A stretch of 5,138 nucleotides of DNA from the IMG/VR virus record IMGVR_UViG_2675903600_000008. The stretch is one strand, 5' to 3'. This document shows, one piece after another, positions 1-5,138 of the stretch (position 1 is its first letter; every line of letters begins with the position of its first letter). The translations under genes were made by a program, and so were the position numbers. This DNA comes from a virus. Lineage: Duplodnaviria; Heunggongvirae; Uroviricota; Caudoviricetes. Under the pieces are notes generated by a model that was given only the letters and a program-made list of their open reading frames with translations, ran no database searches and was not told the DNA's origin.

Positions 1-39
1 CGCAGACGATGACGTCACTGCCCGGCTGTATGCGCGAGG

Positions 40-315
40 TTACCGACTGCGGCCTGAGTTTTTTAAGTGACGTAAAATCGTGTTGAGGCCAACGCCCATA
101 ATGCGTGCAGTGGCCCGGCATCCAACGCCATTCATGGCCATATCAATGATTTTCTGGTGCGTACCGGGTTGAGAAGCGGTGTAAGTGAACTGCAGTTGCC
201 ATGTTTTACGGCAGTGAGAGCAGAGATAGCGCTGATGTCCGGCAGTGCTTTTGCCGTTACGCACCACCCCGTCAGTAGCTGAACAGGAGGGACAGCTGAT
301 AGAAACAGAAGCCAC
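40..315 (-). CDS. insA: IS1 InsA (transposition inhibitor; N-terminal part of the InsAB' transposase)
   Basis: The 91-aa translation [37 protein letters not shown]...LKNSGRSR matches IS1 InsA from memory, including the Cys-rich zinc-finger-like N-terminus. The stop lies just past the A6C slippery site. Confidence 0.95.
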
Positions 316-347
316 TGGAGCACCTCAAAAACACCATCATACACTAA

Positions 348-370
348 ATCAGTAAGTTGGCAGCATCACC
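348..370. repeat. IS1 terminal inverted repeat (insA-side end)
   Basis: Sequence ...agtaagttggcagcatcacc ending at 370 is the reverse complement of GGTGATGCTGCCAACTTACT. The base composition changes abruptly to AT-rich non-IS DNA at 371. Confidence 0.9.
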
Positions 371-449
371 GAAGTGGTAAAGAAGATAATAAAGAATAAT
401 ATTTAGGGTTATAGGTCTTAGCCCATTTTAAATGGAAGGCAGACATGCA

Positions 450-470
450 GCCATGCATACTTCGCATGGC
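450..470 (-). terminator. Hairpin immediately 3' of the membrane-protein ORF (possible terminator or protein-binding palindrome)
   Basis: GCCATGC (450-456), 7-nt loop, GCATGGC (464-470) form a perfect 7-bp stem. It lies 8 nt downstream of the TAA stop at 478-480 on the minus strand. No clean U-tract follows, so terminator function is uncertain. Confidence 0.3.
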
Positions 471-477
471 AACATAA

Positions 478-819
478 TTATTTAGACAAACTATCTAATT
501 TTTGCGTCGCTTTTTGTGTTAGGTCGCTGTAACTGATAAACCCTACGTTAGCACCTACAATTAACACTAAGAACACTAAGCTGCATATGGATAGAGTGGC
601 AGATTTATGCTTATGGAAAACAAAATATGCTACTATTGCACTTAATATGAAGGAAATGAATAGAAATATAGATGTTGATGTTTTTAGATATTTTTCAGGA
701 AATAATGGGTGAGCAATAATGTATACAAGATTAAGTAGTATATAAATTGCTACCGGAATGAAAATCATGCTCCAGTGTGTATCTTTTTTGGGAGGGATTG
801 GCTGCAAATAATCAGACAC
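478..819 (-). CDS. Hypothetical small integral membrane protein (about 3 predicted TM helices), unknown function
   Basis: ORF of 113 aa if started at GTG 817-819, or 96 aa if started at the internal ATG 766-768 (MIFIPV...). Three hydrophobic stretches: IFIPVAIYILLNLVYIIAHPLF, IFLFISFILSAIVAYFVF, LSICSLVFLVLIVGANVGFISY, with a hydrophilic C-terminal tail. Low GC, on the same strand as and 82 bp downstream of the 125-aa ORF. I do not recognise the family. Confidence 0.6.
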   Translation of the reverse strand: MSDYLQPIPPKKDTHWSMIFIPVAIYILLNLVYIIAHPLFPEKYLKTSTSIFLFISFILSAIVAYFVFHKHKSATLSICSLVFLVLIVGANVGFISYSDLTQKATQKLDSLSK

Positions 820-901
820 CGTTTTTCCATCAGTTTCAAGAAGAATTACTAGATCTCTTACTTCACCACTGACTTGAGTGCATCCTTAGTAGTAATGTTA
901 A

Positions 902-1279
902 TCATTTTTTCCCTCCAAATACGATGCCCTCTACGTCTTTGGAAGCTTTTTGTGATGACCACTCCTCTGAATCAGGTGATTTAATTAAAAATATTGTATC
1001 TCCATCAAAAATCGTATTTGTTCCGTAAAAATTCACATTTGATAGATCACCACCAAAAACCCTCTGCCCACTCGAGGTAATTGCCTCACCTAATTTAGTA
1101 AAATTACCAGCAATAGATGATTTTCTTTTTCCACTTCTATTCAAAGTGGCTTTAATTACACCACCACCATCCTTAGAGTTAAATAATTGAATGTCCACTC
1201 CAGCAGTTGGTTGTATATATTTTGAAAGCTCTTTCTTGAACTTGTTAATATATTTATCTTTGTTTTCTTTGTTGGTCAT
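902..1279 (-). CDS. Hypothetical soluble protein (125 aa, Lys-rich N-terminus, Gly-rich C-terminal half), unknown function
   Basis: ATG at 1277-1279, TGA at 902-904. No signal peptide or TM segment visible. AT-rich codon usage unlike the flanking phage genes. A candidate promoter -10 (TATACT on the minus strand, plus coordinates 1316-1321) lies about 35 nt upstream. I do not recognise the family. Confidence 0.6.
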   Translation of the reverse strand: MTNKENKDKYINKFKKELSKYIQPTAGVDIQLFNSKDGGGVIKATLNRSGKRKSSIAGNFTKLGEAITSSGQRVFGGDLSNVNFYGTNTIFDGDTIFLIKSPDSEEWSSQKASKDVEGIVFGGKK

Positions 1280-1451
1280 TGGTTAGATCCATAGTTCTGG
1301 CTGTGATTAGGTGAAAGTATACAAGGTTTTTAAAGCGAAGATCACTGTTTTGGCTTCAAGATAGTTTTGATTTATCGTAATCAATCCGCCATAATCCTCT
1401 CATCGGAGCCTGAACAACTCCGGTGACTTCTGCGCATTTAAGGGGACTTAA

Positions 1452-1547
1452 ATGCGACCACAATCTGAACTCATCACCTTGTCACAGATGCAGAAATGCA
1501 CCTGCGATTTTCTGCATTCTGCGGTTTCCGTTAGGGAGGCCGTATGA
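1452..1547 (+). CDS. Small ORF (31 aa) coupled to ybcN; possibly the YlcH-like micro-protein found upstream of ybcN in DLP12-type prophages
   Basis: ATG 1452-1454 is preceded by AAGGGGA at 1440-1446. Translation is MRPQSELITLSQMQKCTCDFLHSAVSVREAV. Its TGA (1545-1547) overlaps the ybcN ATG (1544-1546) as ATGA. Too short for the ORF track; coding status not proven. Confidence 0.35.
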   Translation: MRPQSELITLSQMQKCTCDFLHSAVSVREAV

Positions 1548-1999
1548 CTCTGCCAGTAGACGGCATCAAACTCCATCGCGGTAACTTCGCGGCCATCGGC
1601 CAGCAGATTCAGCCATTGCTGGATGCCGGGCAATGCTTACGCCTGCAGGTTAAGCCGTGGCGCGAGAAGCGCAGCCTGTCGCAGAACGCGCTCAGCCACA
1701 TGTGGTACACGGAGATCAGCGAATATCTCATCGCCCGCGGCAAGACCTTCGCTACGCCTGAGTGGGTCAAAGACGCGATGAAGCACACCTATCTCGGCTA
1801 CGAAAGCAAAGACCGTGTAGATGTCGTGTCCGGCGAGGTCACCACCGTCCAATCCCTCCGCCATACGTCAGAGCTGGAAACCGGCGAGATGTACATCTTC
1901 CTGTGCAAAGTCGAAGCCTGGGCGATGAATATCGGCTGCCACCTGACAATTCCGCAGAGCTGTGAATACCAGCAGCTGCGCGATAAGCAGGAGGCGTAA
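1544..1999 (+). CDS. ybcN: YbcN / NinB-position protein of lambdoid prophages (151 aa)
   Basis: The 151-aa translation (MTLPVDGIKLHRGNFAAIGQQ...CEYQQLRDKQEA) matches my recollection of E. coli DLP12 YbcN in length and sequence, and it occupies the ninB slot directly upstream of ninE. Strong RBS GGGAGG at 1533-1538. Confidence 0.8.
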   Translation: MTLPVDGIKLHRGNFAAIGQQIQPLLDAGQCLRLQVKPWREKRSLSQNALSHMWYTEISEYLIARGKTFATPEWVKDAMKHTYLGYESKDRVDVVSGEVTTVQSLRHTSELETGEMYIFLCKVEAWAMNIGCHLTIPQSCEYQQLRDKQEA

Positions 2000-2169
2000 T
2001 GGCTACACCGCTTATTCGTGTCATGAACGGGCACATCTACAGAGTATCAAATCGTCGTAAGCGTAAGCCTGAGCTGAAGCCATCCGAAATACCAACACTG
2101 CTCGGATATACCGCTAGCCTGGTTGATAAAAAATGGTTGCGACTGGCAGCAAGGAGGAATCATGGCTGA
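1999..2169 (+). CDS. ninE: NinE family protein (56 aa)
   Basis: ATG at 1999-2001 overlaps the ybcN stop (TAATG). Translation [56 protein letters not shown] matches recalled lambdoid NinE. Below the ORF-track length cut-off, so I translated it by hand. Confidence 0.85.
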   Translation: MATPLIRVMNGHIYRVSNRRKRKPELKPSEIPTLLGYTASLVDKKWLRLAARRNHG

Positions 2170-2452
2170 TTTGAGAAAAGCAGCGCGTGGTCGGGAATGC
2201 CAGGTAAGAATCCCTGGCGTATGTAATGGCAATCCTGAAACGTCAGTACTGGCACATATCCGGCTGGCTGGATTGTGCGGTACCGGTATCAAACCGCCAG
2301 ACCTGATTGCCACCATTGCATGTTCTGCCTGTCACGACGAAATCGACCGCCGCACATATTTTGTCGATGCTGAGTATGCAAAAGAATGCGCGCTGGAAGG
2401 TATGGCGAGAACGCAGGTTATCTGGCTGAAAGAGGGGGTTATTAAGGCGTGA
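2162..2452 (+). CDS. ybcO: YbcO (DUF1364, putative metal-binding nuclease of lambdoid nin regions), 96 aa
   Basis: The ORF track gives 2123-2452, but the recognisable protein starts at the internal ATG 2162 ([23 protein letters not shown]...), preceded by a consensus RBS AAGGAGG at 2151-2157. Conserved Cys/His pattern (C13, C21, C40, CSACH) is present. It overlaps the ninE stop by 8 nt. Confidence 0.9.
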
Positions 2453-2811
2453 ATACCTACAGCATCACATTACCCTGGCCTCCGAGCAATAACCGCTATT
2501 ACCGCCATAATCGCGGGCGCACACACATCAGCGCAGAAGGGCAGGCATACCGCGATAACGTCACCCGAATCATTAAAAACGCAATGCTGGATATCGGCCT
2601 GGCTATGCCAGTGAAAATCCGTATTGAGTGCCACATGCCGGATCGCCGTCGCCGTGACCTGGATAATCTGCAAAAAGCCGCTTTTGACGCACTCACCAAA
2701 GCAGGTTTCTGGCTGGATGATGCTCAGGTCGTTGATTACCGCGTTGTGAAGATGCCTGTTACCAAAGGTGGGAGGCTGGAACTGACCATCACCGAAATGG
2801 GGAATGAATGA
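2449..2811 (+). CDS. rusA: RusA Holliday-junction resolvase (120 aa)
   Basis: Translation [37 protein letters not shown]...[11 protein letters not shown] matches E. coli RusA from memory. GTG start at 2449-2451 overlaps the ybcO TGA (GTGA). Confidence 0.95.
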
Positions 2812-2948
2812 TGTTTGAGTTTTATATGGCAGAATTTCTTCGCCACCGCTGGGGGCATCTGCGCTTATATCGTTTCCCCGGTTCTGTTTTGACCGATTAC
2901 CGAATACTGAAGAATTACGCCAAAACCCTGACAGGAGCAGGAGTATGA
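2811..2948 (+). CDS. ylcG: YlcG small protein (45 aa)
   Basis: ATG at 2811-2813 overlaps the rusA TGA by 1 nt (TGATG). Hand translation [45 protein letters not shown] matches the small DLP12 ylcG product as I recall it. Confidence 0.8.
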   Translation: MFEFYMAEFLRHRWGHLRLYRFPGSVLTDYRILKNYAKTLTGAGV

Positions 2949-3033
2949 AGTCAGAGATAACAATCAACTAATACTGTTTTGTTGATTTTTGCTTGTAATT
3001 GGCGTTCTGGTCTGATTTTTGTGGAGTAAGTTG

Positions 3034-3417
3034 ATGCGTGATATTCAGATGGTTCTTGAGCGTTGGGGAGCGTGGGCGGCTAATAATCATGAAGATGTGA
3101 CCTGGTCGTCCATTGCCGCCGGTTTTAAGGGATTAATTACTTCAAAAGTAAAATCTCGCCCGCAATGTTGTGACGATGACGCGATGATTATTTGCGGGTG
3201 CATGGCCCGTCTGAAAAAGAACAACAGCGATTTGCACGATTTATTAGTAGATTATTATGTAGTCGGTATGACATTCATGTCACTGGCAGGTAAGCATTGC
3301 TGCTCTGATGGTTATATCGGGAAAAGGTTACAGAAGGCTGAGGGCATAATTGAAGGGATGTTAATGGCATTAGATATCCGGTTAGAGATGGATATCGTTG
3401 TTAATAACTCTAATTAA
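3034..3417 (+). CDS. quuD: Q-family late-gene antiterminator (DLP12 QuuD-like), 127 aa
   Basis: Translation from ATG 3034 ([24 protein letters not shown]...[18 protein letters not shown]...) matches recalled QuuD, with Cys-rich zinc-binding motifs. RBS GGAG at 3023-3026. The ORF-track start at 3019 (TTG) is an upstream extension. Confidence 0.9.
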
Positions 3418-3450
3418 TATGCCAATTGTTTACTAAAAATTATTAAAAAT

Positions 3451-3468
3451 GGGGCGTTGCAACGCCCC
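3451..3468 (-). terminator. Intrinsic terminator hairpin in the convergent quuD/nmpC intergenic region (probable nmpC terminator)
   Basis: GGGGCGTTGCAACGCCCC is a perfect GC-rich palindrome (7-bp stem, 4-nt loop). On the minus strand it is followed by ATTTTTAATAATTTTTAG, a T-tract; on the plus strand it is followed by CAAAAATAAA, which is A-rich and not a U-tract. Confidence 0.6.
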
Positions 3469-3534
3469 CAAAAATAAAGGGTAATATATAACAGAAGGTT
3501 TATATAGTTAGAAGCAAGGTTGTGCTCCTAAAGG

Positions 3535-3590
3535 AAGTGGCTTGAGGGAGCCACTTATATGTTGGGGAGGCAAAGCCTCCCGCAACATAT
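3535..3590. other. Two adjacent stem-loops in the nmpC 3' region
   Basis: Hairpin 1: AAGTGGCT / AGCCACTT (3535-3542 and 3549-3556), 8-bp perfect stem with a 6-nt loop. Hairpin 2: ATATGTTGGGGAGGC / GCCTCCCGCAACATAT (3557-3590), about 15 bp with one bulged C and an AAA loop, followed on the plus strand by CTTTTAG. Function unassigned. Confidence 0.4.
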
Positions 3591-3605
3591 CTTTTAGTAA
3601 TCAAA

Positions 3606-4688
3606 TTAGAACTGGTAAACCATACCTACAGCAACGATATCATCGGTAGCAACGCCAGATGCTTTCGTGAAATCGCTCTTATCAATCAGGTTGATTTTGT
3701 AATCAACAAAAGTGGACATATTTTTGTTGAAGTAATAGGTTGCACCTACATCAATATATTCAACCAGGTCCTGATCACCCCACGCACCCAAGTCTTTTCC
3801 TTTAGATTGCAGGTAAGCAACGGACGGACGCAGACCGAAGTCGAACTGATATTGTGCAACTACTTCGAAGTTTTGTGCTTTGTTGGCAATATGGTTATTA
3901 CCAAAAACAGTCATGTTCTGGGTTTCAGAATAGGTGGTAGCCAGATAGATGTTGTTCGCATCATATTTCAGACCAGCTGCCCATACTTCAGCATTTTGAC
4001 CAGATGCATTCAGGCTGTTGTTACCGTAGATAACCTGATTATTAGTGCGGTCAGATTTAGCATAGGTTGCACCTACACCGAATCCTTCATACTCATAAGT
4101 AGTGGAGAAACCGAAACCATCACCATTAGCTTCAGTTACGTCAGTGCGGTCATTTTTACCCTGATACTGAGCAGCAAAGTTCAGACCATCAACCAGACCA
4201 AAGAAGTCGTTGTTACGATAAGTTGCAACACCAGTGGTGCGACCAGTCATGAACACATCTGTTTGAGTCCAAGTGTCACCACCGAATTCTGGCAGGACGT
4301 CAGTCCACGCACCGATGTCGTATGCTACACCGTAGTTACGGCCGTAATCGATGGAGCCGTAGTCACCGAATTTCAGGCCAGCGAAGGCAAGACGGGTTTT
4401 ATCTTTGGAGGAACCTTGAGATTCAGCGCGGTTGCCTTTGAATTCATATTCCCACTGACCGAAACCAGTCAGTTGATCGTTGATTTGGGTTTCACCTTTG
4501 AAGCCAAGACGGGCATAAGTAGTATCACCATCATCTGCATCATTAGAGGAGAAGTAGTGCTTAGCATTAACTTTCCCGTACAGATCCAGCTTGTTACTGT
4601 CTTTATTATAAATTTCAGCTGCCTGAGCAGACATCGCCATCAGTACTGATGCAGCTACAGCAGAAATTGCCACTGTTAATTTTTTCAT
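3606..4688 (-). CDS. nmpC: Outer-membrane general porin, NmpC/OmpD family (prophage-borne), 360 aa precursor
   Basis: Translation from the internal ATG 4686-4688 gives [23 protein letters not shown]|[16 protein letters not shown]..., a classic signal peptide with an AXA cleavage site and porin N-terminus. It has alternating beta-strand character and the porin C-terminal ...VAVGMVYQF. Sequence matches recalled NmpC/OmpD. The 20-codon N-terminal extension in the ORF track (to 4748) is rejected. Appears uninterrupted within this window. Confidence 0.93.
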
Positions 4689-4967
4689 CGTGAGCCCTTT
4701 TTTTGAACTATTATTAAAAAATGATGTCATTGCGCGATAAATATTCATCTAATCAATGTGATTATTTCAAGATGTAAGTTTTGGTTTCTCGTTTGATTTG
4801 TGAAGTAGATCTCTATTTTTATCTGAACTTTTTTCTATCGAATCCTATTCATGGCTCTTGACTGAATAAAAATAAATCTATTAGCCAATTTATATTAACG
4901 GCTGTTATTTATAAGTGCTCTATAATTTGAAGGTTCAATTTAAACCGGCTAAAAATAACACTGGAAA

Positions 4968-4989
4968 TTATTTGTTGGTTATTTGTTGG
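4968..4989. repeat. Perfect tandem direct repeat, 2 x 11 bp (TTATTTGTTGG), with a degenerate third copy nearby
   Basis: TTATTTGTTGG at 4968-4978 is immediately repeated at 4979-4989. A related GTATTTGTAGTGG occurs at 5001-5013. Located about 280 bp upstream of the nmpC start and about 90 bp from the IS1 junction. Confidence 0.5.
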
Positions 4990-5078
4990 GATTTGCTTAT
5001 GTATTTGTAGTGGTGTTTTCAATACTCGGTAGCATTCTCGCAAATATCATTTAGTGGTTTACGTACGTAAAAAATTGG

Positions 5079-5138
5079 GGTAATGACTCCAACTTATTGA
5101 TAGTGTTTTATGTTCAGATAATGCCCGATGACTTTGTC
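5079..5138 (-). mobile_element. IS1 insertion sequence, partial (insB-distal terminal 60 bp; element continues right of the window)
   Basis: GGTAATGACTCCAACTTATTGATAGTGTTTTATGTTCAGATAATGCCCGATGACTTTGTC is the other IS1 terminus (inverted repeat plus the 3' end of the insB frame on the minus strand), from memory. Same orientation as the IS1 at 1-370. Confidence 0.9.

Follow-up and report, generated by a model that had tools for sequence, protein, structure and literature searches.

An AT-rich two-gene cassette in a decayed Shigella sonnei prophage: a possible sensor and membrane-effector module with relatives across bacterial phyla

The window (the whole stretch of DNA that was analysed, 5,138 nucleotides) is best explained as part of a decayed DLP12-type lambdoid prophage of Shigella sonnei, which carries between its replication genes and the ninB/ybcN operon a cassette of two genes, here named A and B. 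Relatives of this pair are found in very diverse bacteria, and our preferred reading, held tentatively and with a little less than even confidence, is that A-B may be a mobile and undescribed conflict module composed of a sensor or regulator and a membrane effector, which acts either by abortive infection or as toxin and antitoxin. The cassette is best explained as a 'moron', i.e., a self-contained, AT-rich, horizontally acquired and predicted transcription unit, and the copy in the window is probably inactive. The features to which the text refers are the following (positions in the window).

1..370, minus strand: end of IS1, with insA at 40-315 and the terminal inverted repeat at 348-370; left boundary, outside the cassette
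371..399, plus strand: 3' remnant (last 29 nt) of the lambdoid replication gene P, from the alignment to the E. coli strain A7 copy
450..470, minus strand: hairpin GCCATGC-N7-GCATGGC, 8 nt past the stop codon of B
478..905, minus strand: gene B, a pseudogene here; the intact product has 142 aa (WP_000608370.1 in intact copies)
880..882, minus strand: 1-nt deletion, GAT GGC to GAT G-C (GG to G), the gap lying opposite position 9511 of the A7 copy
902..1279, minus strand: gene A, intact open reading frame (ORF); phrog_18061, E 9e-85
1280..1345, minus strand: upstream region of A, with a conserved -10-like TATACT (complement of 1316-1321) and a weak Shine-Dalgarno sequence
1544..1999, plus strand: ybcN/ninB-family gene (ORF; annotated 'YbcN family protein' in the A7 copy); right boundary, context only

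An earlier note on this DNA had described the region as markedly AT-rich, and the figures agree: the GC content is 34.4% at 371-1400, against 50.1% in the genes at 1544-3417, and 52.7% in the IS1 part of the window. The Klebsiella copies of the cassette have 33% GC in surroundings of 51-53%. On the left side, the translation of the ORF at 40-315 is InsA, whose relatives are annotated 'IS1-like element IS1A family transposase', and this IS1 end has matches in 4986 of 5426 E. coli genomes, at a median of 10 places per genome. The IS1 end was correctly placed at 370 from the start, but the cassette does not begin at 371, as had been proposed. Position 371 corresponds to position 9001 of the E. 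coli strain A7 copy (L001, the reference for alignment, with an intact pair at NZ_CP028767.1 1326158-1326960), in which gene P is annotated at 8316-9029. Read on this alignment, 371-399 is the tail of gene P, outside the cassette, and the remainder of P is removed by IS1. On the right side, the ybcN/ninB gene is the first of the phage nin-type operon.

The cassette is found at 99% identity or more in 46 of the 5426 complete E. coli genomes. The best-listed full-length matches measure 1071 nt for a query of 1070 nt, and each has two annotated hypothetical proteins; the best-ranked one, CV839-06, has a longer span, with an IS1 inside gene A and an intact B. The site, antisense to the phage early operon, is the same in enteric prophages that differ in their flanking modules, which bears out the view that a variable accessory locus lies between the replication genes and ninB. 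Both deviant composition and a patchy, antisense insertion between conserved phage genes, the marks of a prophage 'moron', are thus found in the sequence.

The two ORFs of the cassette as they stand in the window, 902-1279 (125 aa) and 478-819 (113 aa), are co-oriented on the minus strand, as first reported; the length of the second and the gap of 82 bp between them are a different matter. In the A7 copy, B has 142 aa and its ATG overlaps the stop codon of the 125-aa A by 4 nt. In the window, one nucleotide is deleted in codon 9 of B (around position 881), which shifts the frame, and the residual ORF of 113 aa begins with a GTG and lacks the N-terminal domain. By this comparison, both the length of 113 aa and the gap of 82 bp are artefacts of the 1-nt deletion; the earlier note had overlooked the frameshift in the membrane gene. 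The protein encoded in the window aligns to positions 30-142 of the 142 positions of phrog_16940. A read error cannot account for the deletion, because the exact 113-aa product occurs on at least 100 S. sonnei contigs; the truncated allele is fixed in S. sonnei. Since B is here without its N-terminal domain and no longer coupled to A, this copy is probably non-functional.

The cassette has candidate expression signals at both ends. The TATACT stands 36 nt before the ATG of A, in a block conserved in five enteric versions of the alignment, and a scan for the sigma-70 consensus upstream of A called no promoter and found no good -35 element. Positions 1280..1345 may nevertheless hold a promoter of the cassette's own, which would read in the direction opposite to the phage early operon. 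The hairpin at 450..470 is conserved in E. coli, Klebsiella, and Enterobacter alike; a T-run follows it on neither strand, and the transcript of the cassette probably has its 3' end here.

A is best explained as a soluble cytoplasmic protein of 125 aa. In the alignment of its family, K100 is invariant and Y10, G39, F84, G86, T87, W107, and D115 are nearly so; a dN/dS of about 0.07 indicates purifying selection. AF2, given only nine close homologues, modelled A poorly (pLDDT 58.5). Three candidate functions were considered for A and rejected: nucleic-acid binding, suggested by the pI of 9.5 of the enteric protein, because the pI ranges from 4.7 to 9.9 in the family; a PD-(D/E)xK nuclease, suggested by 'E...IK', because the motif does not fit; and an mCpol/Palm protein, suggested by equal size and by the strings 'FGGD' and 'DGGG', because conservation is lacking at the acidic residues and neither profiles nor fold lend support. 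B is composed of a conserved N-terminal domain (residues 1-36), three transmembrane (TM) helices in the AF2 model, in agreement with the number of about three first predicted, and a short C-terminal helix. It is best explained as an inner-membrane protein, N-in and C-out, with a cytoplasmic N-terminal domain. These 36 N-terminal residues are the most conserved stretch of the protein in the alignment, and the pN/pS of B, about 0.25, again indicates purifying selection.

Neither protein had seemed to belong to a named family, and searches of Pfam, NCBIfam, PADLOC, and PDB left it so. Pfam, NCBIfam, and PADLOC returned only noise for A and B; PADLOC v2, which covers Kiwa, Zorya, and other membrane-linked systems, gave no family for A, and for B its sole match was a 4TM effector at 9 bits (E 0.17). 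When 86 members of the A family were searched against Pfam, nothing was found beyond an HNH fusion (see below), and no Palm, GGDEF, or cyclase domain among them; 12 distant B proteins gave no Pfam match. The PDB sequence search, with the single proteins and with the profiles of A and B, provided no credible match and pointed to no specific fold. Neither A nor B matches a known toxin or antitoxin family. The sole family matches are phrog_18061 for A and phrog_16940 for B (E 2e-74), both clusters without assigned function, in which A and B count as full-length members. The accessions and PHROG identifiers were not found mentioned in the literature (Brenes & Laub 2025 being outside scope), and A and B are absent from the DefensePredictor supplements.

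An exhaustive profile search gave 111 representatives of the A family, which is diverse and unnamed; nearly all have 120-135 aa. In Nitrospira, Nitrosomonas, Synechococcus, Acidobacteria, Syntrophaceae, phages, and metagenomes, the gene after A is nearly always of the B type; the pair is also present in Planctomycetota-type genomes, cyanobacteria, and non-phage islands. Among GTDB genomes of different phyla, a B-type gene follows A in 10 of the 11 evaluable cases, with the 4-nt overlap in nine, and among 54 evaluable metagenome loci it does so in 47-48, with the 4-nt overlap in 38. The distant B-type proteins share the N-terminal signature 'G..EGTpEEv..F..nGL...Y', within a conserved domain of about 30 aa, and three TM segments, and an hhalign comparison shows their homology with the enteric B family (95.7%, E 9e-9). 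In enterics, the pair is kept as a unit in lambdoid prophages of Klebsiella, Enterobacter, and E. coli despite their different replication and Q modules. The 4-nt overlap of A and B is read in strain A7 and in five Klebsiella-type prophage contexts differing in replication, Q, and nin genes; in one further locus (L026) the overlap is of 1 nt. When neighbouring genes are compared, A and B alone recur. Conservation of the pair as a unit, which the earlier note had proposed to check, is therefore found both within enterics and across phyla. A tblastn search of A against GenBank phages gave no match, the search of the cassette against a plasmid collection matched only its flanks, and a profile search of genome contigs with the enteric alignment gave no match.

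A few A genes have another partner: a TIR-like protein, a protein with two TM segments or one, or a fused HNH nuclease, the last being a single protein present on two short contigs. The A proteins with these other partners retain the family signature, and among close A relatives the partner is either TIR-like or a 3-TM protein. The TIR-like partner is also deoxyribosyltransferase-like; it scores 20.9 bits with the Pfam TIR model, below the cut-off of 24.7, and its best matches, also sub-threshold, are CAP12/Pycsar TIR effectors. Defence-related genes are found in the vicinity of some loci of the family. In a Nitrospira island, a Lon/AAA protein, a PDC-M14A match, and a DrmD-like helicase are nearby; another locus adjoins an Mrr_N protein and PDC-M49A; a locus carried as cargo by a conjugative element has a caspase-like peptidase and DUF4238 beside it; and one further locus has a Schlafen/AlbA_2 ATPase as neighbour. 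Of these neighbours, those at the first two loci (L034 and L038) are clear defence genes, and those at the other two (L060 and L117) are suggestive. Many non-enteric loci adjoin housekeeping genes. In one relative, a colicin-like pair is adjacent to the cassette.

The mechanism that we propose for the preferred reading would be as follows. A and B would be translationally coupled, with A the constant sensor or regulator and B the usual effector. In the uninfected cell, B would be held inactive by A and by its own N-terminal domain, presumably through contact between the two proteins. Once a cue came from a phage, or once A was lost, B would be free to oligomerise and to permeabilise or depolarise the inner membrane, and such damage would either abort the infection or kill the cells that lose the element.

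The same data allow a more ambitious reading, which we regard as doubtful, namely that A-B is the founder of a widespread new anti-phage family in which A, a novel sensor or small signalling enzyme, steers swappable effectors. These would be a 3-TM pore-former, a TIR-like domain targeting NAD or nucleotides, and an HNH nuclease, while A, with its invariant Lys and its conserved Tyr, Thr, Asn, and Asp, would follow a logic like that of Panoptes or CBASS with unrelated parts. Panoptes associates mCpol/OptS with 2TM-beta/OptE, the soluble partner restraining the membrane toxin as long as no phage interferes (PMC12657230, PMC12657218), and in some variants the effector is a different one, CARF-TM (PMC13577387). 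Like A-B, Panoptes is a two-gene operon: its first product is soluble and has about 125 aa, its second is a small membrane effector, and by analogy the logic of Panoptes would be the one proposed here for A-B. The components differ, as A lacks the conserved di-acidic GGDD-type motif of mCpol, and B has an N-terminal mini-domain and three TM segments instead of two TM segments and a C-terminal nucleotide-binding beta-barrel (Cap15-like). CBASS and Pycsar resemble the A family in combining a constant component with interchangeable effectors (TM, TIR-like, HNH nuclease), but A-B has no cyclase, no SAVED, STING, or CARF sensor domain, and no PADLOC component match. RexA/RexB of lambda is, like A-B, a prophage pair of a soluble protein and a small multi-pass inner-membrane protein; it is expressed in the lysogen and acts by abortive infection, RexA being the cytoplasmic sensor and RexB (144 aa) being thought to depolarise the cell. 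However, RexA is over twice as large as A, RexB has four TM helices, and Rex lies in the immunity region whereas A-B lies at the replication-nin junction; no PADLOC or Pfam match to RexA/RexB was found at E<=1, besides noise from TM families.

A plain toxin-antitoxin or addiction module, in which B would be a membrane toxin and A its coupled antitoxin, stabilising mobile elements with no dedicated anti-phage role, is unlikely as the whole explanation, even if such a role fits nearly as well as defence. Two small, adjacent, overlapping genes on mobile DNA (prophage, conjugative element, island) are the layout of toxin-antitoxin systems, and antitoxin-toxin operons typically have this gene order and a 4-nt overlap. 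The S. sonnei allele, with B lost and A intact, shows the tolerated order of decay, and the association of A with different toxic-looking partners recalls shuffled toxin-antitoxin pairs. CV839-06 shows the reverse order, with A disrupted by IS1 and B intact, a weak objection since the insertion is probably polar. Further objections are the lack of a match to toxin or antitoxin families, and the TIR-like and HNH partners and defence-island neighbours, which are more typical of immune systems, although the two roles overlap in nature. Known pairs offer partial parallels: in GhoS/GhoT the gene of the soluble protein precedes that of the membrane toxin, and in SpoIISA/SpoIISB a 3-TM toxin has a cytoplasmic domain that is bound by the antitoxin. 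No homology of A-B with either was found, sizes and domain order differ, and the A family, unlike these systems, also pairs with TIR-like and HNH proteins.

It is improbable that the pair has a function unrelated to conflict (lysogenic conversion, envelope stress, ion homeostasis, transport) or one that benefits the phage, such as counter-defence. One would favour such a function from the absence of homology to defence families, the housekeeping neighbours at many non-enteric loci, and the PHROGs without assigned function; it accords poorly with the patchy and horizontally scattered distribution (as in the 46 E. coli genomes), the location on mobile elements, the interchangeable effector-like partners, and the ease with which the genes are lost by frameshift or IS insertion. 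Classical superinfection exclusion has a smaller chance still. P22 SieA, T4 Imm, and HK97 gp15 are inner-membrane blocks to phage DNA entry, and B in the lysogen's inner membrane, with A as helper, would likewise stop the entry of incoming phage DNA. The idea was already put forward in the earlier note, as part of a proposal of an exclusion or defence module, and a small inner-membrane protein encoded antisense at a prophage accessory locus is in keeping with it. Yet the pair is not restricted to phage lineages, being present in Nitrospira, cyanobacteria, Acidobacteria, Planctomycetota-type genomes, and non-phage islands; a phage-specific entry block leaves the soluble TIR-like or HNH partners unexplained; and conservation in B is strongest in a cytoplasmic, not a periplasmic, part. 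Of that proposal, the comparative data thus appear to strengthen the defence side and to make the entry block less likely. Lastly, chance ORFs in AT-rich junk DNA, for which nothing speaks but the absence of annotation names, can practically be dismissed, because conservation across phyla, purifying selection, and PHROG families for both proteins place the ORFs far beyond chance.

If A-B is an immune or addiction module, as in the preferred reading, it would be a compact system of less than 0.9 kb, with a sensor and an effector unrelated to described families and with a range that takes in enterobacterial prophages, Nitrospira, and cyanobacteria, and the natural swapping of effectors would give a handle on its mechanism. 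The replication-nin junction of lambdoid prophages would then be a cargo site for modules of this type, to which the adjacent colicin-like pair also points. The message of the window itself is modest, that of a decaying cassette remnant in a crippled prophage; the S. sonnei allele, in which B is naturally truncated at its N-terminus, may serve as a built-in control.

As far as the tests go, A (a soluble protein of 125 aa) and B (a membrane protein of 142 aa when intact) form an undescribed two-gene family. Searches of Pfam, NCBIfam, and PADLOC with both proteins gave nothing above noise, and among PDB sequences there was no relative of A (single sequence or profile) or of the B profile, which agrees with the earlier note that neither resembles a family one could name. 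A is a full-length member of phrog_18061 and B of phrog_16940, both clusters without assigned function. No mention of either was found in the literature and supplements searched, a set that does not include Brenes & Laub 2025 on the defence systems of E. coli prophages.

When 1.84 billion representatives were searched exhaustively with a profile, 111 A-family proteins were recovered (E <= 1e-3), nearly all 120–135 aa long and matching over their full length. Residue K100 is invariant, and Y10, G39, F84, G86, T87, W107, and D115 are nearly so. Twelve A loci occur in species-representative genomes, including Nitrospira, Neptuniibacter, Nitrosomonas, Salinisphaerales, and Syntrophaceae, as well as Acidobacteria, Synechococcus, Thermodesulfobacteriota, Planctomycetota, and further taxa. 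At 10 of these, A is followed by a B-like gene of 123–154 aa, with a 4-nt overlap in nine; one of the other two has a different 2-TM partner, and one is ended by the contig edge. In their build the proteins at these 10 loci match B: the N-terminal domain reads 'MK(I/L)GP.EGTpEE(V/I)..F..nGL...Y..P', and there are three TM segments and an 'IRFK' loop, which is basic. Enteric (Enterobacteriaceae) and distant B are homologous by profile–profile comparison (probability 95.7%, E = 9e-9, 110 columns). The pairing is also found on viral contigs and short metagenome contigs, and it is kept by A variants with N-terminal extensions. Among 54 metagenome loci that could be evaluated, 47–48 show it, and in 38 the overlap is exactly 4 nt. 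The gene pair is thus conserved as a unit across genomes, in enteric prophages as in species representatives and metagenomes. Because all-against-all comparison of 146 neighbouring proteins revealed no other recurrent gene, this unit consists of A and B alone.

In a minority of cases, A still bears the family signature but has a partner other than B:

L114 4384-5004, L115, and L116 2500-3108: soluble TIR-like/nucleoside deoxyribosyltransferase-like partner, 202–206 aa
L044 and L107: 2-TM partner
L111 and L112: 1-TM coiled-coil partner
L052/L053 246-1589 (two short metagenome contigs): P0104, an A–HNH endonuclease fusion in a single ORF

The best matches of the TIR-like partner, the CAP12/Pycsar TIR effector domain and nucleoside deoxyribosyltransferase, are sub-threshold (Pfam, E = 3.7e-4, with 20.9 bits where 24.7 are required; PADLOC 'Effector TIR', E = 2–4e-4), yet reproducible across sequences and two libraries. 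In P0104, residues 1–120 are the A domain, followed by the HNH domain and a C-terminal part of ~200 aa without assigned identity. Among A proteins 38–47% identical to one another, the partner is either TIR-like or 3-TM. A constant small A with swappable membrane, TIR-like, and nuclease partners suggests, from the architecture, that A would be a sensor or regulator and B an effector. CBASS, Pycsar, Thoeris, retrons, and Panoptes likewise combine a constant component with swappable partners. Any function of A-B would resemble that of known sensor-plus-effector systems.

In Nitrospira (L034), A-B lies among a Lon/AAA protein, a PDC-M14A-matching protein, and a DrmD-like SNF2 helicase (neighbours at 2509-4830, 7846-8847, and 9968-12859). 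In a Syntrophaceae genome (L038 1236-4107), the genes after the pair encode an Mrr_N protein and a full-length PDC-M49A homologue. Both pairs are apparently inside defence islands. In one further genome a conjugative element carries A-B as cargo, with a caspase-like peptidase and a DUF4238 protein as neighbours, and another A locus adjoins a Schlafen/AlbA_2 ATPase. Further A loci accompany Rep_trans/integrase or phage RepO genes, and many adjoin ordinary housekeeping genes. The defence-gene neighbourhood, taken from individual loci without background correction, is suggestive only.

We tentatively favour, at slightly short of an even chance, a mobile conflict module in which A is the sensor or regulator and B the membrane effector, acting by abortive infection or as a toxin–antitoxin pair. 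Basic residues precede TM1 of B and occupy its TM2–TM3 loop, as read from the sequences, which predicts that its N-terminal domain and this loop are cytoplasmic; A has no signal sequence, so the two could meet. A would keep B inactive, directly or via a product, and infection or loss of A would free B, which would then oligomerise and damage the inner membrane. Small residues abound in TM3 of B (G/A motifs). A pure addiction or toxin–antitoxin role is unlikely, perhaps half as probable, and defence and toxin–antitoxin roles overlap biologically. Bearing on it is E. coli CV839-06 (L002 6830-7687), where a separate IS1 insertion, probably polar on B, interrupts A and leaves B intact. Classical superinfection exclusion is improbable, since a family that spans phyla, occurs at non-phage loci, and includes A with soluble partners argues against a lineage-specific entry block.

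The logic of this sensor–effector model is that of Panoptes (PMC12657230), and it is shared by RexAB and membrane-toxin toxin–antitoxin pairs; none of these is akin to A-B by sequence or architecture. In Panoptes, mCpol (~125 aa; in the crystal structure its C-terminus, residues 121–125, is disordered; PMC12657230) lies upstream of a small membrane effector, as A does of B, and for this likeness in size and position the idea was tested on A. It was rejected: the conserved di-acidic motif is absent, the enteric 'DGGG'/'FGGD' not being conserved as acids in the family. None of 86 A-family members matches a cyclase/Palm family, no PDB chain matches A, and B, in contrast to Panoptes, has no beta-barrel. 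The resemblance is at most functional.

Close relatives of A and B are found only in Enterobacteriaceae, where the pair is prophage cargo in every case. The two genes always occur together in Klebsiella, Enterobacter, and E. coli prophages, with a 4-nt overlap (1 nt in L026), antisense to the early-right operon and between replication/accessory genes and ninB/DUF1367/ninE. The flanks differ, with replication modules of DnaB, O/P, or DnaC type and variable Q genes. Purifying selection acts strongly on A (dN/dS ~0.07) and is also seen on B (pN/pS ~0.25). Both boundaries of the cassette are conserved: a -10-like block, TATA(C/A)T, stands ~75 nt upstream of A, and 8 nt past the B stop lies a hairpin (GCCATGC-N7-GCATGGC, window 450-470) whose conservation is perfect. 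The hairpin recurs at L021 ~6810-6835 and L026 ~6800-6830, being longer in Klebsiella; lacking a T-run on either strand, it is no canonical intrinsic terminator and may act in RNA stability or processing. The cassette has textbook prophage moron anatomy. At window 406-434 (plus strand), just past the P stop codon, a terminator-like hairpin is followed by ATTTTAAATG; possibly this is the early-right operon's tR2-equivalent, set back to back with the cassette 3' end. In one enterobacterial relative (L026 3665-5348), a 377-aa colicin-like pore-former and a colicin-immunity-like gene adjoin A-B at the same prophage junction, a second cargo module there.

The 5138-nt window lies within a lambdoid prophage of DLP12 type:

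40-315: insA of the IS1 end left of the cassette, with its inverted repeat ending at 370
478-819, minus strand: remaining B ORF, 113 aa
902-1279, minus strand: A ORF, 125 aa
1544-1999: ybcN/ninB, right of the cassette
rightward of ybcN/ninB, in order: ninE, ybcO, rusA, ylcG, quuD
3606-4688, minus strand: intact nmpC/ompC-like porin gene, annotated 'porin OmpC' in relatives

The AT-rich stretch seen beside the IS1 end is real, with 34.4% GC at 371-1400 against 50.1% in the phage genes (1544-3417) and 52.7% in the IS1 part. The cassette occurs at >=99% identity in 46 of 5426 complete E. coli genomes, with two hypothetical proteins annotated beneath each match listed. The strain A7 copy (L001), inspected in full and used as alignment reference, encodes WP_000182282.1 (125 aa) and WP_000608370.1 (142 aa), overlapping by 4 nt. 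Relative to it, the window lacks one G in B codon 9 (~881, GAT GGC to GAT GC). The 113-aa size and 82-bp gap are therefore leftovers of a frameshifted B; the two minus-strand ORFs of the earlier note stand. The exact 113-aa product is recorded on at least 100 contigs named Shigella sonnei, so the deletion is no read error; since, in addition, no copy of the IS1/cassette junction turned up among the 5426 genomes, the prophage almost certainly belongs to S. sonnei, a lineage noted for IS1 expansion and gene decay. The frameshift deletes exactly the most conserved part of enteric B, its predicted cytoplasmic N-terminal 36 residues. Positions 371-399, abutting IS1, are the final 29 nt of the lambdoid replication gene P, which was thus also destroyed by IS1, and the prophage is without replication function. 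Both losses are continuing decay typical of S. sonnei; this copy is a pseudogenised remnant, and the interest lies in the A-B family, not in this locus. The region upstream of the porin gene (4700-5100) is also very AT-rich (27–33% GC).
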